A stretch of DNA of 29,064 nt. It comes from a virus. Shown one piece after another: positions 1 to 20,908 of this stretch; within the stretch, counting starts at the first letter, position 1, and each line of letters begins with the position of its first letter. Below the pieces are notes generated by a model. The model did no database searches. It worked only from the letters and a program-made list of their open reading frames with translations, and was not told the DNA's origin. Position numbers and translations under genes: made by a program. The stretch lies in the UHGV virus genome UHGV-0076264; one strand, given 5' to 3'.

Positions 1-49
1 GGGGACTGGTACAGACGTGAGTCAGGGCTGCACTTTCAGGGAAACAGCA

Positions 50-868
50 TCAGCGCATGCTCTTCAGCAGCGTTTCTGCCATCACCCACAATGCGCGATT
101 GAGCTTAATGTCCGTGTCGATGCTGTGAATGGCACGGGTGTGGATACGTTTTCCTTTAGCGCTGCGACCGGAAATCCCGCCTTTCAGCATATTTTCCTGG
201 ATGGTCTGATAAGCACTCCACAGGTCCTTACCGTAATCCTCCCGGCGTCGTGGTGTCAGAATGTCAGCGGTGGTGACCGGCTGATGTTTATCACCATAAC
301 GGTAAGTCAGTGCCGCCTGTGCCAGCGCCTGACGTGCCGGTGGCGGCAGAACCAGCGACTGCATGGCATCACGCTTCTCCTCTATCCGGTCAAACACGCC
401 CACCACCTCGTAAGCCCCTTCAATAACTTTCTCCACCACATTTCCCCGGTGCGGAACACGCACTTCCCCCAGAGACTGACCACAGACACACCCGTTCTGG
501 CAGACGAACCTGAAGTAACCCGGCAGCATCTGGTAGCTGGAGGTACCGTCATGGGAGTTGAGCAGAATGATTTCAGGGACATGTTGTCCGTTTATCTCCC
601 CGTCACGGCGCAGACGCAGCATGTGTTTGGTATACCCCCGGCGGCCCGGGTCACGTACGCGGGTCTGGCAGGCGAAGAATGGCTGAAAGCCTTCCCGCTG
701 CAGGCTTTCCAGCACTGTGATGGTGGGGATGTACGAATACCGTTCACTGCGGGAGGTATGCCGGTCTTCCCCAAAAATGCTGGGAACATAGTGCATCAGT
801 TCTTCATGGGTCAGTGGGCGGTCACGGCGTATCTGATTAATCCGTCCGAAGCGACTGGCTAATCGCAT
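50..868 (-). CDS. DUF932-family protein (YfjQ/YafZ-like), 272 aa
   Basis: ORF 50..928 trimmed to the internal ATG at 868, which has AAGGAG 7 nt upstream; N-terminus MRLASRFGRINQIRRDRPLT is typical of DUF932 proteins of E. coli cryptic prophages (recalled family). Confidence 0.75.
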   Translation of the reverse strand: MRLASRFGRINQIRRDRPLTHEELMHYVPSIFGEDRHTSRSERYSYIPTITVLESLQREGFQPFFACQTRVRDPGRRGYTKHMLRLRRDGEINGQHVPEIILLNSHDGTSSYQMLPGYFRFVCQNGCVCGQSLGEVRVPHRGNVVEKVIEGAYEVVGVFDRIEEKRDAMQSLVLPPPARQALAQAALTYRYGDKHQPVTTADILTPRRREDYGKDLWSAYQTIQENMLKGGISGRSAKGKRIHTRAIHSIDTDIKLNRALWVMAETLLKSMR

Positions 869-892
869 AATTAACTCCTTATCTGATAATGA

Positions 893-932
893 AATAAAAG
901 CAAAAAGGCCATGTCCCCGGAGGAACATGGCC
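893..932 (-). terminator. Intrinsic terminator between the 312-aa secreted-protein gene and the DUF932 gene
   Basis: 8-bp stem GGCCATGT/ACATGGCC (907-914 / 925-932) followed on the minus strand by TTTTTGCTTTT. Confidence 0.55.
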
Positions 933-957
933 TGATGGAATATATTATTGCTGATGA

Positions 958-1896
958 TTAATGTTGCTGATTTTTCTCTTTAACTTTTGACCATGAGGGG
1001 CGTCGGTTGCCGGAAAATTCCTTCTGCATTGACCAGTAACCAATCGGGAACTGCTTCACCAGCACCCCGTTGATACCAATATCGACGGACAGATACTGAC
1101 CGTTGTTGATGCTGCCCTTGCGGATGTACGCATCCGCACTGCAGGTGCCGGTATCATACTGCCGCCATGTTGCGGTATCGCGGGCGGCAACATAAAAATC
1201 ACCGAAAGCACAGCCCGTTGCTGACTTACGATTCAGAACGGCAACGTAATACTTAGTGTTGGCTATAATGGCGCAACTGCTGCTCTGACCGCCGCAGACC
1301 TGCCATAACGTTTTGCCGCTGTCACCCTTAAAGGTCCAGATAGTGTCTGCCGGTGCGCCGTCTGTATGTGTTACTGGCAATGCCGGAGCCTGCTGCACTG
1401 GTGTAACGTCGGGTACGTCGCGGCGTAATAGTCGTGCTTCAGCATCCCCGACATCGCCAAACATGTTTTCCTCTCCGCTGTTGTAATAAAAACCGGCAAT
1501 AACATGTTCTGAGGGGATATACAGTATTTTCAGATAATGGTCACCGCAATTACCCCGCTCACAGACAGACCCCAGCAGCCACTTCTCGTCACCAACGATC
1601 ACCGGAATTAATCCACTGTCAGGGCCGTTCATGGAGCCCTGTTTTCCCGTTAACCCGGTGAGTCCTGCTGACTTCAGCGCATCATCAAGGTCTTTCTTGA
1701 ATACCGGGTCAGCATCGTAGATACTGCCCAGAAAGGGGCAGGAACCGTATCCGTTTTCATTATCACCAGCATCAGGATCACAGCGCATTGCATCTGCTGC
1801 CGTTTTTGCGACACCGGCAGCGTAAACTCCGGTGGAAATAAAACAAAGCGAGGATATCAGTATTACCTGTTTTAATTTACGTAATACAAGAAACAT
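958..1896 (-). CDS. Secreted Cys-containing protein of unknown function, 312 aa
   Basis: ORF with N-terminal signal peptide (hydrophobic core ending VYA-AG), GGAG upstream; internal Cys-containing repeat resembling the neighbouring 136-aa protein. Confidence 0.6.
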   Translation of the reverse strand: MFLVLRKLKQVILISSLCFISTGVYAAGVAKTAADAMRCDPDAGDNENGYGSCPFLGSIYDADPVFKKDLDDALKSAGLTGLTGKQGSMNGPDSGLIPVIVGDEKWLLGSVCERGNCGDHYLKILYIPSEHVIAGFYYNSGEENMFGDVGDAEARLLRRDVPDVTPVQQAPALPVTHTDGAPADTIWTFKGDSGKTLWQVCGGQSSSCAIIANTKYYVAVLNRKSATGCAFGDFYVAARDTATWRQYDTGTCSADAYIRKGSINNGQYLSVDIGINGVLVKQFPIGYWSMQKEFSGNRRPSWSKVKEKNQQH

Positions 1897-1961
1897 GATT
1901 ATTTTTACTCCATCCTGTTTATATAAAAGAAACGGGCTCCGTGAAGAGCCCTGTAAAAAAT

Positions 1962-2372
1962 TTAAAAGTCAATGGTATTAAGACCGACATTCTTTTTGAT
2001 GGAGGGATCGTAAATAACAACGGTAAGATGGTCTTTGTCTGAAGAACGGACAAACTTAGCGGTGGCCTCACCACTGCATGTTGCATGACGGTTATAATCC
2101 ATCATTTTACCTTTGCTGGTAGCAAGATTGACAACGATGATATAAGGATCATAACAGGCCGAACCTCCCGGACTGCTCAGCAAGGCATATTTGCCATCAT
2201 CAGAGACACCAATGAGGCTGCATATCCCGTCTTTTACATCCTCACTTCCGCACATCTGCTCACTTCCATCTTTCACATCAATCACAGTACGGGGTAATTT
2301 AACCTCTGTAGCATTAACTGATGCACTCAACAACAAACCTGAAACTATTAATGACAATATAAACGCTTTCAT
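1962..2372 (-). CDS. Secreted small protein of unknown function, 136 aa
   Basis: ORF with signal peptide MKAFILSLIVSGLLLSASVNA; shares a Cys-containing motif with the 312-aa neighbour. Confidence 0.6.
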   Translation of the reverse strand: MKAFILSLIVSGLLLSASVNATEVKLPRTVIDVKDGSEQMCGSEDVKDGICSLIGVSDDGKYALLSSPGGSACYDPYIIVVNLATSKGKMMDYNRHATCSGEATAKFVRSSDKDHLTVVIYDPSIKKNVGLNTIDF

Positions 2373-2462
2373 ATACTCATCCTGTTTATCATTACGGGGG
2401 ATATATTCCTTTTATCTGCTCATGAACCACAAGCAGGGCCTGTTGTCGGCCCTGTGGAATAA

Positions 2463-2687
2463 TTAACGTTCGTCCCGGTCCCGTAAAACCTTTCGCGCCA
2501 GACGTTTTTCCATCTCCGTTACACTGCTGAAAATACCGTTGTCGGTGATAATTCTCTTTAGCTCTTCGCTGCTCCTGGTCTCCAGTCGGTCATGAAGAGT
2601 TTTTACCTCCTGTGCACTGTTGAGGGCGTCTTTTGCAACCTCTTTAAGCAGTTTCCCGGTTACACTCCAGAATCCCATGGGAGCCAC
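2463..2687 (-). CDS. Hypothetical small protein, 74 aa
   Basis: ORF in the same orientation and packed between neighbours; no recognisable motif. Confidence 0.4.
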   Translation of the reverse strand: MAPMGFWSVTGKLLKEVAKDALNSAQEVKTLHDRLETRSSEELKRIITDNGIFSSVTEMEKRLARKVLRDRDER

Positions 2688-2689
2688 CT

Positions 2690-2839
2690 TTACAGATAAC
2701 CGTTATCTTTGCCCCACTCACACCCGCAGTCCCGGCACATCCAGCCATCGGCCCAGGGAATGGTGTCGTGGGAGCCACAGTCCGGGCAGCGTTTGCCGGA
2801 GGTCGGGTTACCGGGTGTGATACGTCTTATTTTCATCAT
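2690..2839 (-). CDS. Small zinc-ribbon protein (CxxC...CxxC), 49 aa
   Basis: Two CxxC pairs (CPDCG, CRDCGC); ORF trimmed to ATG at 2839, which directly follows the stop of the upstream WYL regulator gene (TAA-CATGATG context). Confidence 0.5.
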   Translation of the reverse strand: MMKIRRITPGNPTSGKRCPDCGSHDTIPWADGWMCRDCGCEWGKDNGYL

Positions 2840-2840
2840 G

Positions 2841-3548
2841 TTATCCTTCTGTTGCGGGTTGATGTGGTTCAGGGCATAAGCCGGACAGCACTTCACCTAT
2901 GAACCGGAAATGAGGTAATGCCTGTAAAAATTTCGGGCGAGAAAGGATGTCGCGCACCGTGGCGTCGGGTGTAAAAGTGTCCGGATGAAGCGTGACGCAC
3001 CGGATATCAGTCAGTGGCAGTGCGATGATGCGTGTCTGGTGTGCCCCTGTCAGATACCAGCTACCGGCATGCAGAACCAGGCGGTAGGGTGAGATATCCG
3101 TATGGTTGCATCCGTTGCCGTGCAGAGTCACTTTCCGGTATTCCTGGACAGCATTTACCAGCCGGATAAAGACTCCACTGTCGGTGACGGTCTGTGCAGA
3201 ATCTCCCTGCCAGATAAGGCAGGGAGATTCACCCGGCCCACCCAGAAGTGAACTGACCAGATGTCCGTCAAGTCCCGGAAACAGGGACTCAACGCCCGAC
3301 TGACGGGCAAAGGTTATCACTGCCAGTTCCCGCTGACGGCTGCCGGACAGCAGACGGCACTGGCCCTGTCGATACTCCAGGTCCAGGTACATCAGTCGTT
3401 CACGAAAATCCCGGCGCAGGGTACGAACTGACACGTCAAATTCAGCAGCCAGTTTGCGTATATCCAGCGTTTCGCCTGCCACCAGACGGCTAATAATTAT
3501 CGACAGTCTGACGGCAAGCCGGTCATGGCGATGCTCAGCCTGAGTCAT
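2841..3548 (-). CDS. WYL-domain transcriptional regulator with N-terminal HTH (YfjR-like), 235 aa
   Basis: N-terminal DeoR-like HTH (LDIRKLAAEFDVSVRTLRRDF), C-terminal WYL-like region (GSWYLTG); family recalled from CP4-57 yfjR. Confidence 0.75.
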   Translation of the reverse strand: MTQAEHRHDRLAVRLSIIISRLVAGETLDIRKLAAEFDVSVRTLRRDFRERLMYLDLEYRQGQCRLLSGSRQRELAVITFARQSGVESLFPGLDGHLVSSLLGGPGESPCLIWQGDSAQTVTDSGVFIRLVNAVQEYRKVTLHGNGCNHTDISPYRLVLHAGSWYLTGAHQTRIIALPLTDIRCVTLHPDTFTPDATVRDILSRPKFLQALPHFRFIGEVLSGLCPEPHQPATEG

Positions 3549-3761
3549 AAAACTTCGTTCTCCGGTAAGCTAATTCAATGAAAAGATGAGGGTTATATTA
3601 ACGAGGACGAGAGGCAGGGTATGGACACAGAAAGACGATTTTTAAAAATGCTCAGTTTCAGGAATGACGGGAGCTGCGGGGGATGTTGCTCTTTTTTCTT
3701 CGGGCAAAGGCCTGCAAACGGACAGGATGTGTCCGAACGTCAGCAAAATGCCTTCTCGGTA

Positions 3762-4637
3762 TCAGAAGAAAATCCAGTCCCAGACAGCCCGTGCAACCGA
3801 TACCACAGCATCACGCACGGTCCGAATCACCATTTTCAGCGGGGCGGGCAGGAGCAACGAAGACTCCGCCGTATCGAACACCCGCCCCACCGCTTCGCCA
3901 AAGCCGTCACGGGCCTGCGACCTGACCGGCTCCGTACAGAACCTCCCGTGTAACTGCGTCGCCACCGGACTGGTGGCGCGGTCAGGCAGACAGCGCATTA
4001 TGGTTGACACCATCTCTTCAATGCCCCAGCCGGTCAATGCTGACACCATGCAGACCGGATGACGGGGAGTGAATATCGTGGTAATGGCGGCCTGCTTCGC
4101 CTTCAGGTTAGCCTGCTGCTGTGGCGAGGGGGTGCCGGTACGGATATCCCATTCATGGCAGGGTTCGATTTTGTCGGCCTGATTCAGCACAAACAGCACC
4201 TGCTGCTGGTAAGGCTGCATCACACCGCGCCAGAACTGCTCGTCCACCGACAGCGCCCGGTCATCGGCCTTAATGACCCACAGCACCAGGTCCAGTTCCG
4301 GCAGCATACGCCGGTACAGGGCACGGTATTCATGGTCCCGTTGCCCGTTTTCTCCCACACCCGGTAAATCAACAATCATCAGACTGTGACGCCCGCTGCG
4401 TAGCCGGAAGCGCAGCACTTCACGGGTACAGACGTTCACATCACTGACGGGGGAGACCTCACCCCGGAAGAGTTCGTTACAGAGCGAAGACTTACCGGCA
4501 CCACTTTTGCCCATGATACCAATCACCGGCTCGTAGTGGGTGAGATTCTGAATACGTTCAAGAATAAGCTGGCGAAGCGTATCGGGAAGCGACGCCAGCG
4601 GTTGTTCAAGGGCCTGAAAGCCGTATGGTTTAGTCAT
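3762..4637 (-). CDS. GTPase with P-loop (YfjP/YkfA-like, 50S ribosome-binding GTPase family), 291 aa
   Basis: G1 motif GIMGKSGAGKSS, G3 DLPG, NQADK G4 motif; ATG at 4637. Confidence 0.8.
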   Translation of the reverse strand: MTKPYGFQALEQPLASLPDTLRQLILERIQNLTHYEPVIGIMGKSGAGKSSLCNELFRGEVSPVSDVNVCTREVLRFRLRSGRHSLMIVDLPGVGENGQRDHEYRALYRRMLPELDLVLWVIKADDRALSVDEQFWRGVMQPYQQQVLFVLNQADKIEPCHEWDIRTGTPSPQQQANLKAKQAAITTIFTPRHPVCMVSALTGWGIEEMVSTIMRCLPDRATSPVATQLHGRFCTEPVRSQARDGFGEAVGRVFDTAESSLLLPAPLKMVIRTVRDAVVSVARAVWDWIFF

Positions 4638-4650
4638 AAAGGGATCTCTG

Positions 4651-4695
4651 CATGAAAAAACAAAAATCCCCGCACTCCGGTAAGGGAGGCGGGGG
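4651..4695 (-). terminator. Intrinsic terminator-like hairpin plus U-tract 14 nt upstream of the GTPase start codon (possible leader attenuator or 3-prime end of an unannotated small RNA)
   Basis: Stem CCCCGC/GCGGGG plus CTCC/GGAG with one bulge (4668-4694), followed on the minus strand by ATTTTTGTTTTTT. Confidence 0.5.
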
Positions 4696-5704
4696 ATTCA
4701 CGGAGATAATATCTTTCTAAAATAATTTTTAATGCAATTATCCCCTGGGAGGGGGCTTCGGACCACGCGTGGGGTGTAGGTACCCTGAGAAGTTATCTTA
4801 GTCAAAATCTAACGATCATATCTTGTAATTTAAGTATTTTTTTGTGGATGTGTAACTATTTGTAAGTAAATATCATTTTTAATGAATATCGTTTTTTGTC
4901 ATATGTAAGCAATCCTGATTCCATTTCTAGTGGGGCTGTCTTGGTCTGCGACGTGATGAACAAATGGAACATTGATTAAATCAATGATGAAGGCTATCCG
5001 TGGCGGTGCTTTATCGTACTGAATACTGAAATTTTACAAGAAGTACATTACTTGGCACCGTGGTTTGAAGCAAAAAGGCATTAAGTTTTTGCAGGAACAT
5101 CTCGAAGAGCCAGAACGATTCTGGCTCCCGATAAAGATTTATTTAGCTCAGTCTTATCTGACTGAATAATAACAAACAGCCCCTTATGATGGTACGCCTC
5201 GTCTATTACCTAAAAATTAAAATGCTCATCCGCCGTCAGAGCCTGTTCATCAGCCTAAATCAGTCACAGCACTAGAACGAGGCGGGGAAGTAATTCATGG
5301 TACAGGGCTGCATACTCAACGTCGCGAGCTCTACTTTCCCTCCATGCTAGGTAGATCATCACCGCTTTTTACTTTCCTATTATGCGACCATTGGGGGCGG
5401 TAAAGCAGATTTACGTTCATGTATCAGCACACTCTGACACATGATGCAGTACATTCATTTGGCATTAATATCTTGCCACGCAGATGCTTTTAGTTTTTTA
5501 TTTGCTACATCGAAGATGCTAGCTCTGACGCAGGTACAATTTGTTTGCCAGCGGTAACGGCAGTAAGTCAGCCTCTTTGCTACTGCTTGTACGACAGGCA
5601 GCCAGCGAATAACATATTTATCAATGCGATGCAGCGATTTTAAGCGTATTATTTGCTACGCGTAGTAATCTACTGGATCTATTGGAAAGATATGGAGCCT
5701 GACG

Positions 5705-8356
5705 ATGTCTGTGAGCTGGACTAAAGCTGATTTTTTTAAGTGCGCTTTGCAGGTAAATCCTGCGGGTTACAGTAAGTATCGCGGGAAAGAATCACTTAGC
5801 GAGGATACCTACAATCAGAAGCTGTTGGAGTCCTGCCTCGAAGCTGGTATACAGATTGTCGGTGTTGCGGACCATGGTGCTGTTAATGCTGTAGACAGGA
5901 TTCGTCAGCTCTTTAAGGAACATGGTATTGTCGTTTTTCCTGGATTTGAGATCTGCTCGAGCGAAAAAATTCATTTCGTTTGTTTGTTTGATGAAAACCG
6001 GACAGTACAAGAATTGGAACGCTGCTTGAGCAATCTGGGGTATGAAAATCCCGATGATTGCATTTCCCCTTCAAGGCTCAGCGCCATACAGATTATTGAA
6101 AAAGTAGAATGTTTGGGGGGATTTATTTTCGCTGCACATAGCACGAATGATAATGGCGTGCTGAAATGCCGTATGAATCATATATGGAAAGAACGTGGGT
6201 TGTTGGCGGCGCAGATTCCAGGAACTGTCGATGACTTGAAAGGAGTTGAGGATGATTTTTATCGCAAAGCTATCCTGAACAAACTTCCTGACTATCGTCG
6301 CGAGCGTCCTATTGCCATTATCAACGCGGCAGATGTTGCCCAACCAGAGGAAATTAAAACTCCGGGCGCATCCTGCCTGATAAAAATGACTCGGCCATGC
6401 TTCAGTTCATTTAAACAGGCATTTTTAGATCCAGAGTCACGAGTGCGTCTCAACGCAGATAAGCCACATTGCTATGCTTCGGCAATTGAAAATATTCATT
6501 TTACTGGTGGATATCTGGACGAAACCAATATCACCTTTTCTGACCACCTCAATGCTGTTATAGGTGGGCGTGGGACAGGTAAATCGACTTTGCTGGAGGC
6601 CATTCGCTTTGCTCTGGGTAAACAGCCTTTTGGTGATTCAGCACAAAAGCAACATAGTGCAATTATTAAAACTAACTTAGGGAACGGTACGCTGGTTCAA
6701 CTACAGGTTCGCTCTGCTATGATGCAAGGCCGTACCTTTACCATAAGTCGCAAATTTGGCGGGAAATCCATTGTAACAGACAGTGAAGGGAAAGTTTCAT
6801 CTTATACCCCAGATGATTTACTTCCTAGGTTGGAATTGTATGGGCAGAACGAAATTTATGAAATGACCCGCGATATTCATAGTCGTAATCGTTTGGTTGA
6901 GAGATTCTTGGAAGGAGATCATAGCAAGTACGATGTGATAATCGATAAGGTCTTGTCACGCTTGGAAGAGAGTAGCATTACTATCCTAAATGCTCTTGAG
7001 CAAAAGGCAGAGATAGAACTTGAAGTAGCACGATTGCCGAAACTACTGGAGCAGGCAGAGCAATTTAAACAGCTTGGCCTGGATGAAAAACTCAAAATTG
7101 TTCCTTTACTGGAAAAAGAGAAGCAGCTTAGCTTACGTCATCAGGAAGAATTATCTAGGGTGAAGGATGTTCTTCAGAAACTAAAAGACAGCCTGCCTGA
7201 CCTCGCTTATCTTGGCGATGGCGTGATAAATGTCATGCCTCACCACTCTCTTTTTCTCCAGCAACGTGATGTACTCCAACGAGCACAGGAGCAATTGTCA
7301 ACACTAGTTCAACATATTGATGAGACCCTTCAGCGGTCATTTGCGGAACTTGCTCCTTTACAACTTGAGTTATCAGATCTAATCGGTGCAGAAGAAGCTC
7401 AGCTTGAAAAAGCCTTTAAAGATATTCCAGCCAGCCAGGGAAAAAGTGGGCGACAGATTGGCGCAGAGTATCAAATATTGTTACGTCAAATTGCTTCTAT
7501 TCGCCCTAAAGCAACGGAGCTGGAGAACTGGCAAAAGCAACTTGATGAGCTGTACCAGCAGCGTAAAAGACACCTTCTGGAACTTATTCAGGCTCGTTCT
7601 CAACGTTCTGCTGCATTGGCAAAATCCGTCAAGCGCTTAAATAGAAGACTGGATGAAAAAGTGCGACTCAATTTGCAGCCAGAAGGTAACCGTCAACCCC
7701 TGTTGCATTTTCTGGAGCAATGTAATCTGGAAGGGGTAGGCTCACGACGCCTCGCTTGGGTATTGGAGCATGATTTTTCACCGGAAAATCTGGTTGAGAG
7801 TATCCGCCTTGGTGAACAAGCATTACATAATGCCGGGTGGGGAATTACACCAACAGTCATCCAGGCATTATTGCGGTTGAGCGAAAAGCAGCTTCTAGAA
7901 CTGGAAGCATTATCATTACCGGATACGATGCAAATTGAGCTGAATGTCATGCATGACGGTGGTGGCGTACTTTGGCGCCCTATCGATGAGCTATCGACTG
8001 GGCAGCAGTGTACTGCTGTACTGCATTTATTGTTGTTAGATAATAAGGACCCACTGATCCTCGATCAACCTGAGGATAACCTTGATAATGCATTTATTGC
8101 AGAGCGTATAGTGACGGAACTGCGTAGGGCGAAGCTGTCCCGGCAGTTTTTATTTGCCACACATAACGCTAACATACCAGTTTTCGGTGATGCTGAATGG
8201 ATTGGTGTGTTGAGTGTGGAAGAGGGGAAAGGGCGTATCCTTCCTGAACAGCAAGGGGCGATTGATCTACCTGAAATCCAGTGTCTGGCGGCGAATATCC
8301 TCGAAGGTGGTCAAAGTGCCTTTAATCAGCGCCGGGAAAAATATGGATTCAAATAA
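5705..8356 (+). CDS. PHP-like phosphoesterase domain fused to Rad50/SbcC-like ABC ATPase with coiled-coil insert, 883 aa; candidate single-protein anti-phage nuclease (Ppl-like)
   Basis: N-terminal PHP-like motifs (VGVADHG, FPGFE, FAAHS); Walker A GGRGTGKST; long heptad-rich middle; ABC signature LSTGQQ; Walker B LILDQPEDNLD; H-loop FATHNAN; GGAG-like RBS before ATG 5705. Confidence 0.85.
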   Translation: MSVSWTKADFFKCALQVNPAGYSKYRGKESLSEDTYNQKLLESCLEAGIQIVGVADHGAVNAVDRIRQLFKEHGIVVFPGFEICSSEKIHFVCLFDENRTVQELERCLSNLGYENPDDCISPSRLSAIQIIEKVECLGGFIFAAHSTNDNGVLKCRMNHIWKERGLLAAQIPGTVDDLKGVEDDFYRKAILNKLPDYRRERPIAIINAADVAQPEEIKTPGASCLIKMTRPCFSSFKQAFLDPESRVRLNADKPHCYASAIENIHFTGGYLDETNITFSDHLNAVIGGRGTGKSTLLEAIRFALGKQPFGDSAQKQHSAIIKTNLGNGTLVQLQVRSAMMQGRTFTISRKFGGKSIVTDSEGKVSSYTPDDLLPRLELYGQNEIYEMTRDIHSRNRLVERFLEGDHSKYDVIIDKVLSRLEESSITILNALEQKAEIELEVARLPKLLEQAEQFKQLGLDEKLKIVPLLEKEKQLSLRHQEELSRVKDVLQKLKDSLPDLAYLGDGVINVMPHHSLFLQQRDVLQRAQEQLSTLVQHIDETLQRSFAELAPLQLELSDLIGAEEAQLEKAFKDIPASQGKSGRQIGAEYQILLRQIASIRPKATELENWQKQLDELYQQRKRHLLELIQARSQRSAALAKSVKRLNRRLDEKVRLNLQPEGNRQPLLHFLEQCNLEGVGSRRLAWVLEHDFSPENLVESIRLGEQALHNAGWGITPTVIQALLRLSEKQLLELEALSLPDTMQIELNVMHDGGGVLWRPIDELSTGQQCTAVLHLLLLDNKDPLILDQPEDNLDNAFIAERIVTELRRAKLSRQFLFATHNANIPVFGDAEWIGVLSVEEGKGRILPEQQGAIDLPEIQCLAANILEGGQSAFNQRREKYGFK

Positions 8357-8359
8357 CAA

Positions 8360-9240
8360 AGAATTAGGCTGTCTCCCTTAATTACGTAACCGTTGATAAA
8401 AGAGTCGGATGCAGCCCAGTTTCACCATCGCCAGATAATTTCTTGCCGTTTTGTCGTAACGTGTAGCGATGCGGCGGTATTCTTTCAGGTGACCAAAGCA
8501 CCGCTCAACGACGTTGCTATTGCGATACGCATCGCGATCAAGCCGTGCTCGTCCAACCGATGCCATTTTTTCATTTGATTTTCGGGGGATGACTGCCTTT
8601 AAGCCTTTATTTTTCAGCTCGTTGCGCAATGTGTGTCCGGAGTACGCTTTGTCGGCCAGCACAACATGACCACGGCGTTTTATGCAACCGTTCTGACGCT
8701 GAACGCCAATGCCGTCCAGAAGTCGTTGCGCAAACTGGCTTTCATGAGACTGCCCGGGGCTTAGCACGATATTTAACGGGAGGCCGCTTCCGTCTGTTGC
8801 CAGATGGATTTTGGTGCCAAAACCGCCTCGAGAGCGACCCAGCCCATTATCTTCGTCGATATCGGGATGTTTTTTGAGCTCCGGCGGCGCATTTTAGCGC
8901 CCGGATATTACTGCCATCCAGCGCTGTGGCAGACCAGTCAACAAAGCCGTTCGCATCAAGTCGTGAAAGCAATCTGTTAAAAATGATGTTAATCACGCCT
9001 GACTTTGACTACCTGTTAAAGCGGTTATTAACGGTTTTCCATGGCCCATATCGTTCGGGTAAATCGCGCCATGGTGCGCCGGAACACAACACCCAGAACA
9101 TGCCGTTGATGATTTTACAATGCTCTGCCCATGGGCGCCCGGCCTGTCGTGTGGCAGGTTCAGGGGGCAACAAGGGCTTGATGATGGCCCATGCTTCATC
9201 GGGGAGGTCGTAGCGAGTCATGGTTCAATATGTTGTAGAA
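8360..9240 (-). mobile_element. IS5-family insertion sequence (IS427/IS1031-like group), ends approximate
   Basis: Transposase in two frames: N-terminal part 9009..9221 with PWRDLPERYG motif and C-terminal DDE part 8378..8767, consistent with a frameshifted IS5-family transposase; inverted-repeat ends not resolved. Confidence 0.6.
8378..9221 (-). CDS. IS5-family DDE transposase, split over two frames (programmed frameshift or disruption)
   Basis: ORFs 9009..9221 and 8378..8767 on the same strand in different frames with about 240 nt between them. Confidence 0.55.
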
Positions 9241-13017: not shown

Positions 13018-14421
13018 TCAATGCATATCAACGTTGTTTTTTATGGTAATACCTGCTTCATTTAAGATCCATGTCTCAATTTTCTCGTGCCATTTTCGTA
13101 AAAGATCTAACGGACGACGGCGATAGTGTTTTTCGGCAAGAGCGCTGGGTTTGTGTCCCATAATTTGAGCAACAATACCTGTGGGAACTTCAACCCACTC
13201 GGCCAAAGTACCAAAACTACGACGCAAACCGTGAAGGCTGATATGTGGTAACTCAGCTCGCACTAACGCTCTGTTGTGCGCTGAACGCGGTTCAATAATT
13301 TTGCCACTTTTACTGTTACTTTTGAAAACCCACCCCTCCTTATTTACGTCAGAATTTGGGAATTGCGCTAGCGCATTTAACAGCTCAGAAACATAAGGAG
13401 TGAGAGGGATGGTACGTTCGCCTTCGATCTTGTCTTTAATTCTCATACTTGACCATTTGAAATCTACGTCAGACCACCGAAGTGACGCAATTTCTTCACG
13501 CCGTGCACCGGTGAGCAAAAGTACCTGGAGATAGGCCGATGCAATGGGATTATTGAGGCTACGCACAGCACTGAACCAACTTTTTAACTGTTCTTTTTGT
13601 AAGCAATCTCCCGCTTTACTTGCTGATACTGGAACCATTTTTCTCACGTTATGATCTTGTGCAAGGTCGCCATGGATTATTCCCTGATATTTTTTCTGGT
13701 AATTAGCCCATTTGATAAATGCACGCAACAGACGGTAGGCATGAGCAGTGACGGTAGGCCTATTTTGTCTCTCTTTACTTAGCCATGCGGTAATGTTCTC
13801 TGGTGTTAGTTCCGATAAGGGGAGGTCGAGTAAGCTAGCCAATGGTCCAGCTGAGGTTGGGCCCCGGCCTCTTTTTTTACTTTCCCCCCCACGGCTGGAC
13901 AAGTTAATGTGGTCGGCAATGTAGCGTGCAGAGTAAGGCCGTTTAGTTTTTGCGCTGATTCCGGTTCTCAATTCTTCAAGGTAATCTTCCCAAGCGCTTG
14001 TGAAGGTTATCTTTGTTTTACGAGATTCAGCCTGCTGTGATTCCGCTTCAGCAATTTTTTCTGCCTTAGCTATACGCGGATCTATCCCAGTATCGATTAA
14101 TGTTTGCAGCCGCCTAGCTTCGGCCCTGGCATCATCAATCCTCCAATCGTTAATGTTGCCAATGGTCATGCGAAGGGTTTTTCCCGCATATACGCTTTGG
14201 AACACAAAAGCTTTTGTTCCGCGAGTTGCCCGGCATGCCAGAGTTGTTACATCCGCATCCCAAAGAAATGCTTGGTTCTTCCCTTCGGTTAAAGCAAATT
14301 TTCGAATGCGCTCGAAGGTGAGTTTTTGTCTTGGAAGTGCCATTTTAGGGCTCCAGAAGAGAAATGTTACATCACCATAATGTAACGGCTGGTGTAAGTA
14401 AAATGGGGGAATAAACATCAA
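13018..14421 (-). CDS. intF: P4-type tyrosine integrase (IntF-like), 467 aa
   Basis: C-terminal catalytic region with HGLRRSF and HKPSALAEKHYRR (R..H..R..Y tyrosine recombinase signature); 5-prime end about 100 nt from the att copy. Confidence 0.8.
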   Translation of the reverse strand: MMFIPPFYLHQPLHYGDVTFLFWSPKMALPRQKLTFERIRKFALTEGKNQAFLWDADVTTLACRATRGTKAFVFQSVYAGKTLRMTIGNINDWRIDDARAEARRLQTLIDTGIDPRIAKAEKIAEAESQQAESRKTKITFTSAWEDYLEELRTGISAKTKRPYSARYIADHINLSSRGGESKKRGRGPTSAGPLASLLDLPLSELTPENITAWLSKERQNRPTVTAHAYRLLRAFIKWANYQKKYQGIIHGDLAQDHNVRKMVPVSASKAGDCLQKEQLKSWFSAVRSLNNPIASAYLQVLLLTGARREEIASLRWSDVDFKWSSMRIKDKIEGERTIPLTPYVSELLNALAQFPNSDVNKEGWVFKSNSKSGKIIEPRSAHNRALVRAELPHISLHGLRRSFGTLAEWVEVPTGIVAQIMGHKPSALAEKHYRRRPLDLLRKWHEKIETWILNEAGITIKNNVDMH

Positions 14422-14525
14422 TGCCTGTCAATTTTTATCAACAGGTGTTTTTCATAACGCAATGTTTTATAATGAATTACTTGTTTTAAGAGTAGATTTT
14501 TAAAGGGGTAAAAATATAATAACGT

Positions 14526-14574
14526 CGCATTCGTAATGCGAAGGTCGTAGGTTCGACTCCTATTATCGGCACCA
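14526..14574 (+). repeat. Attachment-site copy: 3-prime 49 nt of tRNA-Thr(CGU) (thrW), not a complete tRNA gene
   Basis: Anticodon stem-loop CGCATTCGTAATGCG (anticodon CGT), T-arm GGTTCGACTCC and acceptor 3-prime strand TATTATCGGCACCA are present; the D-arm and 5-prime acceptor strand GCCGATA are absent upstream. Confidence 0.8.
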
Positions 14575-14588
14575 TTTAAATCAATAAG

Positions 14589-15752
14589 TTACACATCATT
14601 AGTACCTTTCTTATTTTTTGACTGGGACAAATTTGGGACCGATGGGTTCAGGATCGAGTCTATTTGCCGTGCGTGTTCGGTAAGGTGATTAGGTGCAAGG
14701 TGAGCATATCGACGAACCATTTCGATAGACTCCCAGCCTCCCATTTCCTGTAACACTGACAACGGGACTCCGGCTTGAACCAGCCAACTTGCCCAGGTGT
14801 GTCTCAAGTCGTGAAATCTGAAATCATCAATACCAGCCCGTCTCAGAGCCGCTTTCCAGGCTGTGTTTGCGTCATACCGCATCTTCCTTACTGTTGGCGC
14901 TTTCGTTCCGTCTGGTTTGGTACAGCTTTCCTTGTACACAAATACCCAACGGTGATGATTACCGATTTGTTTTTTCAATACGCGACATGCAGTATCATTC
15001 AGCGCAACGCCAATTGCGCGGTTTGATTTACTCTCTTCCGGGTTTATCCATGCCACCCGGCGCTGCATATCTATTTGTTGCCATTCAAGGTTGATGATGT
15101 TCGAGCGTCTTAAGCCTGTTGCCAGTGCAAATTCAACAACAGACTTTAATGGCTCCGGACATTCATCAATCAGCCTTTGTGCTTCATGGGGCTCCAGCCA
15201 GCGGATCCGTTTATTCTTTGGTTGAGGCACTTTAATAATTGGTGCCTTATCCAGCATTTTCCATTCACGCTCTGCGGCTCTTAGCAGGGCCTTTATAAAT
15301 GAAAGATGCGTAGCCTTCGTTGCAACGGACGCTGGTTTTGGCGTGTATTCTGGAACAGGTTTCCCTTTTTTTCTGCATGCTTCTGCCCTGAGTTTCCAGT
15401 TTTCCTCATGACGCCGGTTCGTCATTTTCTGCATTGCTGAATAAATTTTTGATTCAGTAATGTCTCTTAGTTGCATTCCTGCGAAATGTTGAAGCCAGAA
15501 TCCGATCCGGCTTTTGTCATCGTCCAGTGATTTTTTATGTGCTTTCTCTTCAAGCCACCTGACACACGCTTCCTCGAACGTTATATCAGGTATTTCACCA
15601 AGTTTGCTGACCCGCCATGCTTCAGCCTTTAGCTTGTCATGGAGTTCTGTCGCCTGCCTTTTGTCCTTTGTTCCAAGAGACTGTTTAAATCTTTTACCGT
15701 TCGGCAATGTGAAACTGGCGTACCATATTTCACCTCTGCGGAAGAGTGACAT
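14589..15752 (-). CDS. int: Phage P22-type tyrosine integrase, 387 aa
   Basis: Near-identical over its length to my recollection of P22 Int ([52 protein letters not shown]...); P22 integrates at thrW, matching the adjacent att. Confidence 0.9.
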
Positions 15753-15979
15753 TTTCTTTCCTCTGTTATGCCATCACCCGCGCTCACCTTGATAGTATGC
15801 AGCGGAGACTGAAGCGCCGCAATGCAGGCTTGTCGCGTTGTGAGGTAAGGAGATTTTGGCTTGGTTGGATCTTTACGTGTTGCCTGTAGGCGGCCTGTTC
15901 GTATCCAGTTGGTAGCGGTAGGTCTGGATATCTTGAGAAACTGACAGGCCTCATCGAGTGTGAGGCTGTATGATTCCAT
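15629..15979 (-). CDS. xis: Excisionase Xis (P22-type), about 116 aa
   Basis: ORF 15629..16009 trimmed to [33 protein letters not shown] (HTH); 3-prime end overlaps the int start. Confidence 0.8.
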
Positions 15980-16229
15980 GGTTACCTCTGCTTTTTGAAC
16001 GCATGTCACGTAACTTCTTAATGTGTTCTGCCGTTTCGATCTCTTCTGCTATCCGATCTGCATCAGCTTTATTCACAGGTTCAAAGTCATGATTAAAGCG
16101 GAACATGCTGGCGATACATGTTCTGCCTTTTCGGATGTAGTGAACTTTGTTGTGGGTAGAACGCAGGATTTTGCAGGGAGTGCCGTGGTGGTCGACGTAC
16201 CAGGTGTTAGGAAAAATGATTCTGAACAT
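15951..16229 (-). CDS. Hypothetical early-left protein, 92 aa
   Basis: ORF only; no recognisable motif; start uncertain. Confidence 0.3.
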   Translation of the reverse strand: MFRIIFPNTWYVDHHGTPCKILRSTHNKVHYIRKGRTCIASMFRFNHDFEPVNKADADRIAEEIETAEHIKKLRDMRSKSRGNHGIIQPHTR

Positions 16230-16276
16230 TTTTACACCTCAGTTGGACGATGTTGAAATTTGCTGCTTTGAGGCCA

Positions 16277-16495
16277 TCACAATCCCCATTGTTTGTTCTT
16301 AAGTTCGATCTCCTCCTGGCAACTTGCACAAGTCCGACAACCCTGAACGGCCAGACGTCTTAGTTCATCTATCGGATCGCCACACTCACAACAATGAGTG
16401 GCAGATATAGCCTGGTGGTTCAGACGACGCATTTTTATTGCTGTATTGCGCTGTAATTCTTCGATTTCTGATGCTGAATCAATGATGTCTGCCAT
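16277..16495 (-). CDS. TraR/DksA-family C4 zinc-finger protein, 72 aa
   Basis: CCECGDPIDELRRLAVQGCRTCASC four-Cys motif typical of phage TraR/DksA-like proteins. Confidence 0.7.
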   Translation of the reverse strand: MADIIDSASEIEELQRNTAIKMRRLNHQAISATHCCECGDPIDELRRLAVQGCRTCASCQEEIELKNKQWGL

Positions 16496-16593
16496 CTTTC
16501 ATTAATCCCTGAATTGTTGGTTAATACGCTTGAGGGTAAATGCGAATAATAAAAAAGGAGCCTGTAGCTCCCTGATGATTTTGCTTTTCATGT

Positions 16594-16875
16594 TCACCGT
16601 TCCTTAAAGACGCCGTTCAACATGCCGATCGCCAGGCTTAAATGAGTCGGTGTGAATCCCATCAGCGTTACCGTTTCGCGGTGCTTCTTTAGTACGCTAC
16701 GGCAAATGTCATCGACGTTTTTATCCGGAAAATGCTGTCTGGCTTTTTTGATTTCAGAATTAGCCTGACGGGCAATGCTGCGAAGGGCGTTTTCGTGCTG
16801 AGGTGTCATTGAACAAGTCCCATGTCGGCAAGCATAAGCACACAGAATATGAAGCCCGCTGCCAGAAAAATGCAT
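16594..16875 (-). CDS. Hypothetical protein (start uncertain, possibly at 16809)
   Basis: ORF only; alternative ATG at 16809 would give 71 aa. Confidence 0.3.
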   Translation of the reverse strand: MHFSGSGLHILCAYACRHGTCSMTPQHENALRSIARQANSEIKKARQHFPDKNVDDICRSVLKKHRETVTLMGFTPTHLSLAIGMLNGVFKER

Positions 16876-16885
16876 TCAGTGGTTG

Positions 16886-17077
16886 TCATACCTGGTCTCT
16901 CTCATCTGCTTCTGCTTTCGCCACCATCATTTCCAGCTTTTGTGAAAGGGATGCGGCTAACGTGTGAAATTCTTCGTCTGTTTCTACTGGTATTGGCACA
17001 AACCTGACTCCAATTTGAGCGAGGCTATGTGCCATCTCGATACTCGTTCTTAACTCAACGGGAGATGCTTTGTGCAT
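16886..17077 (-). CDS. Hypothetical small phage protein, 63 aa
   Basis: ORF with GAGG 8 nt upstream of the ATG. Confidence 0.4.
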   Translation of the reverse strand: MHKASPVELRTSIEMAHSLAQIGVRFVPIPVETDEEFHTLAASLSQKLEMMVAKAEADERDQV

Positions 17078-17228
17078 ACAGCCCCTCGTTTATTATTTAT
17101 CTCCTCAGCCAGCCGCTGGGCTTTCAGTGGATTTTGGATAACAGAAAGGCTGGGAAATACCCAGCCTCGCTTTGTAACGGAGTAGACGAAAGTGATCGCG
17201 CCTACCCGGATATTATCGTGAGGATGCG

Positions 17229-17909
17229 TCATCGCCATTGCTCCCCAAATACAAAACCAATTTCAGCCAGTGCCTCGTCCATTTTTTCGATGAACTCCGG
17301 CACCATCTCGTCAAAACTCGCCATGTACTTTTCATTCCGCTCAATCACGACATAATGCAGGCCTTCACGCTTCATGCGCGGGTCATAGTTGGCAAAGTAC
17401 CAGGCATCTTTTCGCGTCACCCACATGCTGTACTGCACCTGGGCCATGTAAGCCGATTTTATTGCCTCGAAACCACCGAGCCGGAATTTCATGAAATCCC
17501 GGGAGGTAAACGGGCATTTCAGTTCAAGGCCGTTGCCGTCACTGCATAAACCATCGGGAGAGCAGGCGGTGCGCATATTTTCGTCGCGATAGATGATCGG
17601 GGATTCAGTAATATTCACGCCGGAAGTGAATTCAAACAGGGTTCTGGCGTCGTTCTCGTACTGTTTTCCCCAGGCCAGCGCCTTAGCATTAACTTCCGGA
17701 GCCACACCGGTGCAAACCTCAGCCAGCAGGGTGTGGAAGTAGGACATTTTCATGTCAGGCCACTTCTTTCCTGAGCGGGGCTTTGCTATCACGTTGTGAA
17801 CTTCTGAAGCGGTGATGACGCCGAGCCGTAATTTGTGCCATGCATCATCCCCCTGTTCGACAGCTCTCACGTCGATCCCGGTACGCTGCAGGATAATGTC
17901 CGGTGTCAT
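17229..17909 (-). CDS. exo: Lambda exonuclease (Red alpha), 226 aa
   Basis: Near-identical to lambda Exo as recalled ([54 protein letters not shown]...). Confidence 0.95.
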
Positions 17910-18691: not shown

Positions 18692-18696
18692 CCGTT

Positions 18697-18993: not shown

Positions 18994-19069
18994 GGCTGAA
19001 CTCCTGAAAATGGCTGTGAAAATATCGCCCGCGAAATGCCAGGCTGATTAGGAAAACAGGAAAGGGGGG

Positions 19070-19612: not shown

Positions 19613-19720
19613 ATATAACTGGTTGTATTTAGGATGGATTTATTTTGTGACTTGAATCGCATAGCGATAACTGAAGCGAGGTTATGGTGGTTTTTTTAAC
19701 GGTGTGTGTGATGAGGGGAG

Positions 19721-20896: not shown

Positions 20897-20908
20897 ATTT
20901 CCATTTCA

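Follow-up and report, generated by a model that had tools for sequence, protein, structure and literature searches.

The window analysed here (29,064 nucleotides, virus genome UHGV-0076264) carries close to its start seven co-oriented minus-strand ORFs, which, the start codons of two genes apart, stand at the coordinates that the first-pass annotation had given them (Table 1). Its domain calls (GTPase, HTH-WYL regulator, zinc ribbon, DUF932) were likewise correct as judged by Pfam, PADLOC and motifs. Over its first 5.7 kb (1-5704) the window matches an E. coli chromosome at 100% identity. RefSeq annotates the same seven ORFs in that chromosome, where they are located between thrW and intF and where, past the window edge that cuts the module, antirestriction, RadC/JAB, DUF987, a YeeU-type antitoxin and the CbtA toxin follow. 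The module had been described as tight and, although the co-orientation stands, the tightness was overstated: from the GTPase to the DUF932 gene the gaps are 213, 1, 11, 90, 65 and 89 nt, the largest of these contains a conserved candidate operator, and a scan places terminator-like hairpins 3′ of both the 136-aa and the 312-aa gene.

Table 1. Genes and other features of the region (positions are those of the window).
Feature	Position	Strand	Basis or remark
DUF932 protein, 272 aa, ortholog of K-12 YafZ/YfjQ	50..868	-	PF06067 3.3e-52; RefSeq CDS with same coordinates; backbone gene
12-bp GC hairpin + T-run	896..933	-	Just 5′ of DUF932 Shine-Dalgarno site and ATG
312-aa two-domain protein, predicted Sec-exported	958..1896	-	N-terminal Ivy fold; C-terminal rare four-Cys beta domain
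136-aa protein, predicted Sec-exported, four conserved Cys	1962..2372	-	PHROG 8968 at 3e-38
71-aa small helical cytoplasmic protein (74 aa from GTG 2687)	2463..2678	-	RefSeq, Pectobacterium homolog
49-aa zinc-ribbon protein (CPDC...CRDC)	2690..2839	-	CxxC...CxxC; translationally coupled to regulator gene
YfjR-type HTH-WYL transcription regulator, 235 aa	2841..3548	-	Pfam WYL, HTH_DeoR, PADLOC WYL
Proximal conserved box TGTCCATACCCTG	3615..3627	-	Second candidate regulator site
Perfect palindrome CGGACA-N5-TGTCCG	3719..3735	.	Candidate operator of YfjR-type regulator
P-loop GTPase, 291 aa, YkfA/YfjP/YeeP family	3762..4637	-	MMR_HSR1 1.4e-15; first backbone gene of arm
Conserved GTPase leader	4655..4742	-	Promoter-like box 4705-4734, GC hairpin 4665-4698, T-run, Shine-Dalgarno, ATG
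Decayed ykfA-like GTPase pseudogene fragment	5153..5364	-	aa ~96-160, three in-frame stops
PHP-like/ABC-type ATPase, 883 aa, TrlF family, related to anti-phage Ppl	5705..8356	+	Outside module; variable island cargo

The association of GTPase, DUF932 and WYL genes had been said to recur in E. coli island relics, and it does: of 5426 complete E. coli genomes, 4536 contain a match to part of the module (median number of places per genome, 3), K-12 has counterparts of the trio in both CP4-57 (yfjP-yfjQ-yfjR) and CP4-6 (ykfA-yafZ-ykfK), and the pairing of GTPase and regulator recurs in the species loci described below. The region belongs to an integrative island of CP4-6/CP4-57 type at tRNA-Thr (thrW), of whose conserved arm it forms the promoter-proximal part; for the most part this is an ordinary, common E. 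coli genomic island of which a few details are new. The backbone of this arm consists of the YkfA/YfjP-family GTPase and DUF932 and, left of the window, of KlcA/ArdB-type antirestriction, RadC/JAB, DUF987 and CbeA/CbtA. The claim that GTPase, DUF932 and WYL proteins alike lack an experimentally assigned function is upheld.

The GTPase is 53-59% identical in amino acid sequence to K-12 YkfA, YfjP and YeeP, with intact G1 (GKSGAGKS), G3 (DLPG) and G4 (NQAD) motifs, and DUF932 is 74-75% identical to YfjQ and YafZ. The originally proposed DUF932 start at 928 is replaced by ATG 868, because ATG 928 lies inside the GC hairpin with its T-run and homologs align from residue 2. This hairpin (-25.5 kcal/mol, z -4.4) resembles an intrinsic terminator or an attenuator in the leader; a comparable structure of other sequence precedes yfjQ, yafZ and the DUF932 genes of Serratia and Pectobacterium. 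The GTPase leader likewise contains a strong terminator-like hairpin (-25.3 kcal/mol, z -4.7), and the K-12 yfjP and ykfA leaders have a similar fold with a different sequence. In front of both backbone genes, structure is kept while sequence varies between islands. The stretch 4653-4742 matches upstream of GTPase genes in most of the rows sampled from ~4600 spacer-matching genomes.

The regulator (Pfam WYL, 23.9 bits, cut-off 21.8; HTH_DeoR, 4.7e-5; PADLOC WYL, 9e-18) shares 49% amino acid identity with K-12 YfjR, and its first 62 residues match the CP4-6 remnant ykfK at 89% identity. The palindrome 5′ of its own gene is present as a single copy in the window. We surveyed 80 regulator loci from Enterobacterales species genomes, with operator counts on 78; 72 of the latter have GGACA-N5-TGTCC at -184 to -191, with invariant arms and 16 different spacers, against a single further occurrence in the 1.03 Mb of flanking sequence. 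Of the 78 loci, 54 have the proximal box, at -74 to -80 relative to the ATG of the regulator gene. In gSELEX, the sole listed target of K-12 YfjR is the yfjR operon (PMC8249747). Since ChIP-exo found no K-12 YfjR binding sites under the conditions tested (PMC8464067), we infer operator binding from conservation.

The zinc-ribbon gene is coupled to the WYL stop codon as proposed (junction TAA-C-ATG), with its Shine-Dalgarno sequence, AGAAGGA, inside the regulator gene. Serratia has a 94% identical ORF, and in Proteus a diverged, uncalled zinc-ribbon ORF (CPHC...WMCRDC) follows a 40%-identical regulator; the zinc ribbon adjoins the regulator in only 4 of the 80 species loci. The next gene was correctly called but not at its length of 74 aa, the start being most likely ATG 2678, as in RefSeq and in the Pectobacterium homolog, which gives 71 aa. 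Its product gave no family match in searches including Pfam, NCBIfam and PADLOC; it is 60% identical to a 71-aa Pectobacterium ORF that there precedes the homolog of the 312-aa protein. The RefSeq name 'transposase' for it is probably a misnomer.

Across the 80 loci the regulator occurs in the same arm, which runs on to CbeA/CbtA. The GTPase lies upstream of it in 69 of the 70 loci with room, a near-perfect adjacency that could reflect a functional link between the two genes, and DUF932 lies either between GTPase and regulator (46 loci) or downstream of the cassette (20 loci). Downstream of the regulator the cargo takes about 11 combinations, as judged in a tblastn comparison with 9 reference cassette proteins: the 136-aa gene as the only one recognised (22), ypjK-yfjS-yfjT (16), yfjS-IrmA (10), yfjT (7), the type seen in the window (3-4) and others, with the same variation in Serratia, Pectobacterium and Proteus. 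We reject a single dedicated seven-gene system in favour of a backbone with an inserted cassette. Between GTPase and DUF932 lies a self-contained, exchangeable cassette of regulator and exported proteins, comprising a 213-bp control region, the YfjR-type HTH-WYL regulator, the coupled zinc ribbon, the 71-aa protein and two Sec-exported cysteine-bearing proteins.

Both of the latter have, as first described, a classical leader with basic, hydrophobic and AxA segments, and both have even numbers of conserved cysteines. The proposal that they are paralogs with a shared Cys repeat did not survive comparison (BLASTP E 0.31; hhalign probability 6%, with only the leader and a short two-Cys stretch aligned). 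No member of the 136-aa family was among the 150 of 166 matches listed for a profile of the 312-aa family, as judged on seven sequences read, and the two genes assort independently across species. The 136-aa protein matched nothing in Pfam, NCBIfam or PADLOC and has no recognisable fold or family; the same holds for the C-terminal domain of the 312-aa protein (residues ~180-312) with regard to fold and family. The N-terminal domain of the 312-aa protein has the Ivy fold with the loop C112-E-R-G-N-C117; the window protein itself scores 14.2 bits against Pfam Ivy, below the cut-off of 21 bits. The loop differs from the Ivy motif CKPHDC in lacking its His, so that inhibitor activity is uncertain.

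The variant Ivy fold is consistent with an envelope-level device against phages or competitors, in which the exported proteins would block phage lysozymes/endolysins or T6SS muramidases, or mask receptors, with the WYL regulator as a switch turned on at infection or DNA damage. In a preprint (10.1101/2024.04.20.590424), T7 plating efficiency is reported to rise on knock-down of a hypothetical protein of E. coli O121 that has an Ivy-like domain and the loop CKANTC, Ivy also controls bacterial lytic transglycosylases (PMC3660660), and an exported or lipoprotein gene, recognised by a crude signal-peptide signature, follows the regulator in 73 of the 80 loci. However, homology to the O121 protein beyond the Ivy domain is unproven because the C-terminal halves differ, a PADLOC match is absent, and alternative cassettes encode IrmA, described (by family name only) as a host-interaction protein; we consider such a device unlikely, if worth keeping in mind. 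The IrmA-family genes, which hold the slot in 14 of the 80 loci, instead suggest colonisation or virulence cargo against animal hosts, in which a secreted Ivy-like lysozyme inhibitor, and elsewhere IrmA or YfjS/YfjT, would protect against or manipulate the host, the backbone being inert relics of a decayed element. Ivy family members do inhibit vertebrate lysozyme (PDB 1gpq, an Ivy-HEWL complex), and decay of the island is evident (IS5 remnant, pseudogene fragment, cbtA/yeeU frameshifted in the source genome). This possibility appears improbable given the missing His and the presence of the arm in genera associated with plants, insects or soil, Pectobacterium, Photorhabdus, Erwinia and Rahnella among them; moreover, the backbone genes, still intact, keep 50-90% amino acid identity across genera, which argues for selection on them.

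WYL regulators are frequent neighbours of defence systems, and the seven genes had been linked to the divergent PHP-ATPase through a shared intergenic region, as might befit a WYL-controlled anti-phage operon working or co-regulated with it. The ATPase is indeed a Ppl relative (NCBIfam TrlF, 542 bits, cut-off 350; Ppl, 174 bits, cut-off 1000; PADLOC Ppl, 2e-40), the PADLOC WYL models are CRISPR-associated, and several species have defence genes in the slot facing the GTPase. The neighbourhood check set beforehand, however, showed the ATPase and the module to be independently distributed. Among 5426 genomes, 27 carry the ATPase gene; ten of these copies are 84-89% identical, and the two of them that were examined lie in other islands, beside type III R-M or BREX, with no adjacent GTPase/WYL gene. 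Of the 83 genomes that carry the cassette, only 17 have an adjoining ATPase, and these represent one island lineage since all are >=99% identical. A 94% identical module at the aspV tRNA lacks the ATPase, and a true TrlF adjoins the GTPase in none of the 80 species loci; exported-protein cargo, and not the ATPase, is what accompanies the regulator.

The spacer (4638-5704) is not a compact divergent promoter region but a recombination scar with a GTPase pseudogene (blastn 74-76% to ykfA; tblastn 1e-16 to YkfA, 5e-16 to YfjP), and the predicted operator is absent from it. PADLOC gave only a weak LeoBC match (1e-8) for the GTPase, a marginal Cas12f match (E 0.0025) for the zinc ribbon, the sole and not meaningful match among the products of the four cassette genes that follow the regulator, and none for DUF932. 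On distribution and operator alike, the functional tie to the ATPase is unsupported computationally, and the defence operon, largely refuted in silico already, is highly improbable. Across 66 loci the slot 5′ of the GTPase holds 33 clusters; its occupants in other species include QatA, R-M genes of types IIG and III, WYL proteins resembling BrxR and an SMC-like ATPase. K-12 has rnlAB and abpAB there. The PHP-ATPase is one of many alternative defence cargoes in a variable slot, with no functional tie to the module.

An island-arm backbone with an exchangeable regulator/exported-protein cassette, and the ATPase as separate cargo, is the reading that we favour as fairly probable, together with the following mechanism. 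A regulator dimer would bind the palindrome and the TGTCC-containing box at its own promoter and set cassette transcription in response to a WYL ligand, and the cassette proteins would be delivered to the periplasm or envelope, where the 312-aa protein, with its altered inhibitory loop, would most likely inhibit an enzyme that cleaves peptidoglycan but is not a c-type lysozyme. The GTPase and DUF932, each situated behind a hairpin-plus-T-run leader, would together with antirestriction and RadC most likely help the island to establish itself, or to counter defences, on arrival in a new host, by analogy with the leading regions of conjugative plasmids, which carry DUF932, DUF905 and antirestriction genes. 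The analogy covers DUF932 and antirestriction and not the GTPase, because the latter is rare on plasmids (78 records). At least 5000 plasmids, of which 87% are conjugative, have DUF932 homologs of 60-64% identity, and in pEK499 the order around the DUF932 gene is ssb, DUF905, ParB, psiB, hok, DUF932, SLT, traM.

The seven co-oriented minus-strand ORFs at 50-4637 carry the same annotation on identical DNA in complete E. coli genomes; the grouping reported in the first-pass annotation is thus real, and what it describes is the backbone of a well-known, functionally uncharacterised type of genomic island. Its domain calls (GTPase, HTH-WYL regulator, zinc ribbon, Sec-type leaders and DUF932) are borne out by domain searches, and what is new here is incremental, i.e. 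a variant of the regulator cassette, a predicted operator, a fusion protein with an Ivy fold, and leader hairpins. Two gene calls change. The DUF932 start had been put at 928, an ATG inside a 12-bp hairpin that is followed, in order, by a T-run, a Shine-Dalgarno site and the ATG from which we now begin the gene; DUF932 homologs align starting at residue 2. The small ORF, earlier given as 74 aa, is probably of 71 aa, like a 60%-identical homolog in Pectobacterium, which adjoins an Ivy-like gene. RefSeq labels the 71-aa protein (2463-2678) 'transposase', although no transposase family matches it, and the label is probably a propagated misannotation.

Positions of the module genes, associated elements and neighbouring island features
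Feature	Position	Strand	Remarks
DUF932 gene	start ATG 868	-	PF06067, 3e-52
DUF932 leader	896-933	-	GC hairpin and T-run, just ahead of Shine-Dalgarno and ATG
312-aa protein gene	958-1896	-	Sec-type leader
C-terminal domain of 312-aa protein	958-1359	-	residues ~180-312
136-aa protein gene	1962-2372	-	Sec-type leader
Small ORF	2463-2687	-	probable start ATG 2678 (71 aa)
Zinc ribbon gene, 49 aa	2690-2839	-	CxxC...CxxC; ATG after regulator stop as TAA-C-ATG
HTH-WYL regulator gene, 235 aa	2841-3548	-	Pfam WYL, HTH_DeoR, PADLOC WYL
Second box	3615-3627		TGTCCATACCCTG
Palindrome	3719-3735		CGGACA-N5-TGTCCG
GTPase gene	3762-4637	-	MMR_HSR1 1.4e-15; G1 GKSGAGKS, G3 DLPG, G4 NQAD, all intact
Conserved part of spacer	4653-4742
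GTPase leader	4655-4742	-	promoter-like box, GC hairpin and T-run, just ahead of Shine-Dalgarno and ATG
Decayed ykfA-like GTPase fragment	5153-5364	-	aa ~96-160; three in-frame stops; tblastn 1e-16
ATPase gene, 883 aa	5705-8356	+
IS5-family transposase remnant	8378-9221		frameshifted in RefSeq
intF	13018-14421		Phage_integrase, Arm-DNA-bind_3
Partial tRNA copy	14507-14563		Rfam

The intergenic gaps are 213, 1, 11, 90, 65 and 89 nt, so that the description of a tight module applies to the regulator, zinc-ribbon and 71-aa genes only, the remaining gaps being up to 213 nt. Co-orientation is consistent with a single seven-gene operon; against this stand the 213-nt gap, with its conserved operator/promoter region, and internal hairpins, that with a T-run before DUF932 being strong and those after the 71-aa and 136-aa genes weaker. 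A simple promoter/terminator scan returned counts no higher than in shuffled sequence; hairpins 933-906 and 1951-1934 proved meaningful on comparison.

Nucleotides 1-5704 of the window are 100% identical to several E. coli chromosomes. The module genes in NZ_CP098201 lie in an island at tRNA-Thr (thrW), between thrW and the P4-type tyrosine integrase gene intF. To the left of the window that island continues with antirestriction, JAB/RadC, DUF987, YeeU-type antitoxin and CbtA toxin genes, the last two frameshifted, and rightward with the ATPase, the IS5 remnant, yagK, yagL, yagM, ykgV, yagN and intF. The module is therewith one arm of such an island, as judged by the tRNA site and integrase, by the co-oriented pair of a YkfA/YfjP/YeeP-family GTPase and a YafZ/YfjQ-family DUF932 protein, and by the continuation from antirestriction to CbtA, which lies outside the window in the identical genome and is present in most of the 80 related loci described below. 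Of 5426 complete E. coli genomes, 4536 have matches to part of the backbone; the GTPase-DUF932 segment matches over 80% of the complete genomes, mostly in multiple copies, and the full arm is met with repeatedly across Enterobacterales.

The closest known relatives are the K-12 elements CP4-6 (ykfA-yafZ-ykfK/ykfL-yafY-ykfB-ykfF-yafX-ykfG-ykfH-yafW-ykfI) and CP4-57 (yfjP-yfjQ-yfjR-ypjK-yfjS-yfjT ... yfjX-yfjY-ypjJ-yfjZ-ypjF). They share the kind of integration site, thrW being the one used by CP4-6, as well as the backbone genes with their order and orientation. At the protein level the GTPase is 53-59% identical to K-12 YkfA, YfjP and YeeP (53-54% for the CP4-6 and CP4-57 proteins), DUF932 shares 74-75% identity with YafZ and YfjQ, and the regulator 49% with YfjR; over its first 62 residues the regulator and the CP4-6 ykfK pseudogene are 89% identical. 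An identical operator palindrome precedes yfjR and the ykfK remnant. The elements differ in three respects: the regulator cassette lies between the GTPase and DUF932 genes here, but after DUF932 in both CP4 elements; it carries the zinc ribbon and the 71-aa, 136-aa and Ivy-like 312-aa proteins as cargo, rather than YpjK, YfjS and YfjT as in CP4-57; and a TrlF ATPase occupies the slot upstream of the GTPase, in place of rnlAB/abpAB or perR. YpjK, YfjS and YfjT occupy the same post-regulator slot as the cassette proteins of the window, yet none of the latter four has a BLAST relative among YpjK, YfjS, YfjT, YafY and YkfB. Neither do these four small proteins have a significant PADLOC, NCBIfam or Pfam family, their matches being to generic zinc ribbons and, below threshold, to Ivy.

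That the slot behind the regulator is exchangeable is evident from a search with an alignment of YfjR-like proteins as query, in which each species was represented by a single genome; it yielded 80 loci from Enterobacterales genera, on which reference proteins were placed by tblastn. The GTPase gene is upstream of the regulator on the same strand in 69 of the 70 loci with room for it. In 46 loci DUF932 lies between the two, and in 20 it follows the cassette; the arm then runs on through YkfF (DUF905), antirestriction, RadC, DUF987, CbeA and CbtA. What follows the regulator varies: the 136-aa gene alone (22 of 80 loci), ypjK-yfjS-yfjT (16), yfjS-IrmA (10), yfjT (7), yfjT-ypjK (6), IrmA (4), the window type with zinc ribbon, 71-aa, 136-aa and 312-aa genes (3, plus one partial), the 312-aa gene alone (3), the 71-aa and 312-aa genes (2), ypjK (2), or no detected cargo (4). 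By a crude signal-peptide test, at least one ORF of this slot is positive in 73 of the 80 loci. Loci inspected one by one agree with this, the order being GTPase, regulator, zinc ribbon, a 315-aa protein and DUF932 in Serratia; GTPase, DUF932, regulator, the 71-aa protein and a 316-aa protein in Pectobacterium; and DUF932, regulator, a zinc-ribbon ORF missed by gene calling, a C-domain protein standing alone and IrmA in Proteus. The module is therefore best described as a backbone (GTPase, DUF932 and onward) carrying a mobile cassette of regulator and exported cargo, two parts that can now be told apart. The unannotated Proteus mirabilis ORF (L012 7690-7900; CPHC...WMCRDC) sits behind a 40%-identical YfjR-like regulator. 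Regulator and zinc ribbon are adjacent in only four of the 80 species loci; given the Proteus arrangement, the pair is old and was lost in most lineages.

The first-pass annotation had further proposed that the module is tied to the PHP-ATPase gene which it faces, naming independent distribution and the lack of a regulator site in the intergenic region as findings that would refute this; both were obtained in silico. Among the 5426 complete E. coli genomes, 27 carry the ATPase gene. Of its copies, 17 are at least 99% identical and all lie beside this module; ten others are 84-89% identical, and the two of these that were examined lie elsewhere: one, in an ssrA island, has a type III R-M system as its neighbour and the other has BREX, and neither has an adjacent GTPase or WYL gene. 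Conversely, the cassette from the regulator to the 312-aa gene occurs in 83 genomes, and a 94%-identical module at the aspV tRNA is without the ATPase. The 1067-bp ORF-free spacer contains no copy of the predicted operator described below, and the match to the second box within it is at chance level, with three mismatches. A defence operon coupled to the PHP-ATPase is thus largely refuted; the link is coincidental. This removes a tempting wrong inference, namely that a WYL regulator beside a defence gene is its controller. Nor is the spacer a compact divergent promoter, as it holds a GTPase pseudogene, oriented as the module is, and conservation ahead of GTPase genes at large is limited to 4653-4742; the pseudogene points to replacement of an older arm through recombination.

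The ATPase itself scores 542.3 bits with the NCBIfam TrlF model (TrlF_fam_ATP; cut-off 350), compared with 174 bits for the Ppl_antiphage model (cut-off 1000; NCBIfam Ppl 3.8e-51, PADLOC Ppl 2e-40). It resembles Ppl, a single-gene anti-phage PHP-ATPase, in its length and in being an ABC/SMC-type ATPase, and no PHP domain is detected by Pfam at E<0.01. Judged by these profile scores, it is a relative of Ppl rather than a member, belonging to the sister family TrlF, on which we found nothing published. Its position is explained by the slot facing the GTPase being a general landing pad for defence cargo, with no functional link needed: the nearest upstream ORFs fall into 33 clusters among 66 loci, the slot elsewhere holds QatA, type IIG and type III R-M genes (the latter a methyltransferase), BrxR-like WYL proteins and an SMC-like ATPase (L016, L021, L047, L049, L055), and in K-12 it holds rnlAB and abpAB (L002 12919-14356). 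The IS5 remnant directly after the ATPase stop is consistent with arrival of the ATPase as mobile cargo. An apparent second TrlF beside a GTPase, in locus L055, is instead a 25%-identical SMC-like ATPase. In 28 of the 66 related loci (e.g. L018, L020 and L012 3540-4478) a co-oriented ORF of ~290-350 aa, which has no PADLOC match and is absent from the window, lies 85-134 bp upstream of the GTPase.

The regulator exceeds the thresholds for both HTH and WYL membership (HTH_DeoR 23.5 bits versus 21, 4.7e-5; Pfam WYL 23.9 versus 21.8; PADLOC WYL 9.1e-18 over residues 10-199). With the BrxR/CapW-type regulators of defence islands it shares an N-terminal HTH followed by a WYL domain with the W-Y-L motif (SWYLTG), as well as a palindrome within its own promoter, suggestive of autoregulation. 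However, the BrxR-like WYL proteins that other loci carry upstream of the GTPase are, at 301 aa, ~60 residues longer, and behind the regulator lie small exported proteins rather than a recognised defence system; the genes there have no meaningful PADLOC match, the sole hit being of the zinc ribbon to Cas12f (E 0.0025). Control of an adjacent defence system in the BrxR/CapW manner is not supported, given the lack of meaningful PADLOC matches, the independence of the ATPase and the lack of the predicted operator in the ATPase-facing spacer.

Alignment of the regions upstream of six YfjR-like genes revealed the perfect palindrome and the second box listed in the table. Relative to the regulator ATG, 72 of 78 species loci have GGACA-N5-TGTCC at -184 to -191, with 16 different spacers, and one further copy was found in 1.03 Mb of flanks; the box TGTCCATAnCCTG lies at -74 to -80 from YfjR-like start codons in 54 of 78. 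The exact palindrome is unique within the 29-kb window. That the arms are invariant and the spacer free marks the element as a protein-binding site and not an RNA stem, and the palindrome and box together form a strong candidate operator of YfjR-type regulators, as predicted by this conservation. The literature that we found on YfjR comprises one in-vitro target listing, in which gSELEX gave the yfjR operon as sole target (PMC8249747), and one negative ChIP-exo study, with no peaks (PMC8464067); an operator was not found reported. With the target listing set against negative ChIP-exo, operator binding is putative, and the regulator may autoregulate through the CGGACA-N5-TGTCCG palindrome. A precise, testable operator prediction is thus now available for YfjR-type regulators.

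With respect to the exported cargo, the 312-aa protein has the Ivy fold. The window protein itself scores below the Pfam cut-off (PF08816, 14.2 bits versus 21; E 0.052), but 22 of 24 aligned family members match Pfam Ivy at E<=1 (best 4.2e-10), many of them pass the Pfam model, and NCBI gives some orthologs Ivy-family names. Like Ivy (E. coli YkfE, P. aeruginosa PA3902), the protein is exported and has a disulfide-bounded six-residue loop at the equivalent position. The loop sequence differs: the inhibitory motif of Ivy is given in the literature as CKPHDC, whereas here the loop is C112-E-R-G-N-C117, and CE[RQKT][GNS][ND]C across the family, so that the key His that plugs the active site is missing. 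Among hits of the profile search, the five small Ivy-like proteins that were inspected retain C[KE]xH[DN]C. The protein also departs from Ivy in its location on a mobile island under a WYL regulator, and in its fusion to a ~130-residue C-terminal domain, which is beta-rich with four invariant Cys residues and has no PDB fold match; searches of the whole protein against PDB sequences gave chance-level matches only. One cargo protein is thereby recognised as having an Ivy fold with an altered inhibitory loop.

The 312-aa family comprises 70 clusters at 90% identity and, among matches with a source name, is confined to Enterobacterales. A profile search of a 1.84-billion-protein library gave 166 hits with E <= 0.001; counted by hand, about 17 of the best 150 contain the C-terminal domain, three of them as full-length two-domain representatives, and among the matches listed the domain otherwise occurs alone (Proteus, 188 aa) or N-terminally in ~270-aa proteins. 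The 136-aa family is narrow, every homolog among the matches listed being at least 72% identical, and has four conserved Cys residues. The earlier view of the 136-aa and 312-aa proteins as paralogs was not sustained (BLASTP E 0.31; hhalign probability 6.3%), the genes also occurring independently; no 136-aa-family member was recognised among the best 150 of the 166 profile matches, of which seven sequences were read.

These features suggest that the cargo may act at the envelope, where the 312-aa protein would inhibit some peptidoglycan-cleaving enzyme. One competing reading is that the cassette provides envelope-level protection against phage or T6SS attack, for which a preprint (10.1101/2024.04.20.590424) provides a lead: in a CRISPRi screen in E. 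coli O121, knock-down of a hypothetical protein with an Ivy-like N-domain and a variant loop, CKANTC, is reported to have raised T7 plating. Another is that the exported proteins are host-interaction cargo.

For the backbone genes, the nearest parallel is with the leading regions of conjugative plasmids. At least 5000 plasmids have a DUF932 homolog (60-64% aa identity); of the 5000 that were counted, 4369 are predicted conjugative, and in F-like plasmids the homologs are near-universal. In the F-like plasmid pEK499 the leading region reads ssb, DUF905, ParB, psiB, hok, DUF932, SLT, traM. The island arm similarly combines DUF932, DUF905 (YkfF), antirestriction and RadC genes. On the other hand, a homolog near oriT/traM was found for DUF932 only, the GTPase is rare on plasmids (78 records), and the present element sits in the chromosome and is integrase-borne, the window being free of tra genes. 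By analogy, the backbone genes may serve establishment or anti-defence. Published work on DUF932 offers circumstantial hints only, and its profile gave chance-level matches against PDB sequences.

The GTPase and DUF932 genes are each preceded by a stable hairpin leader of the same design, that of the GTPase lying downstream of a conserved promoter-like box. The hairpin structure is kept between islands and the stem sequences differ (also in loci L002, L006, L008 and L011). These short hairpins are not of the kind of Frpo-like single-strand promoters. In P. aeruginosa, AlpA acts as a processive antiterminator (PMC7969949, PMC9371919), and islands of this type encode AlpA/HTH_17 proteins, YkgV in the window; one idea, by analogy, is that the leaders could be terminators read through by a factor of this type. 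In the fullest reading, YfjR-type WYL regulators would control swappable exported cassettes via CGGACA-N5-TGTCCG, the cassettes would protect the envelope with the Ivy-fold protein directed at phage or T6SS peptidoglycan hydrolases, and the GTPase and DUF932 genes would be gated by leader terminators that an AlpA-like antiterminator of the island reads through during induction or transfer. We consider that combination improbable as a whole.

Beyond the island, the partial tRNA copy directly after intF is a duplicated thrW end; Rfam found nothing besides it in the whole window, with no match in 1-5800. From ~14500 to 29064 there follows the early region of a lambdoid prophage (integrase, exo/bet/gam, S24 repressor, O/P, ybcK, rusA and quuD), and the window therefore holds two tandem elements at one tRNA gene. 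In strain MB56 the same lambdoid prophage lies directly at thrW.
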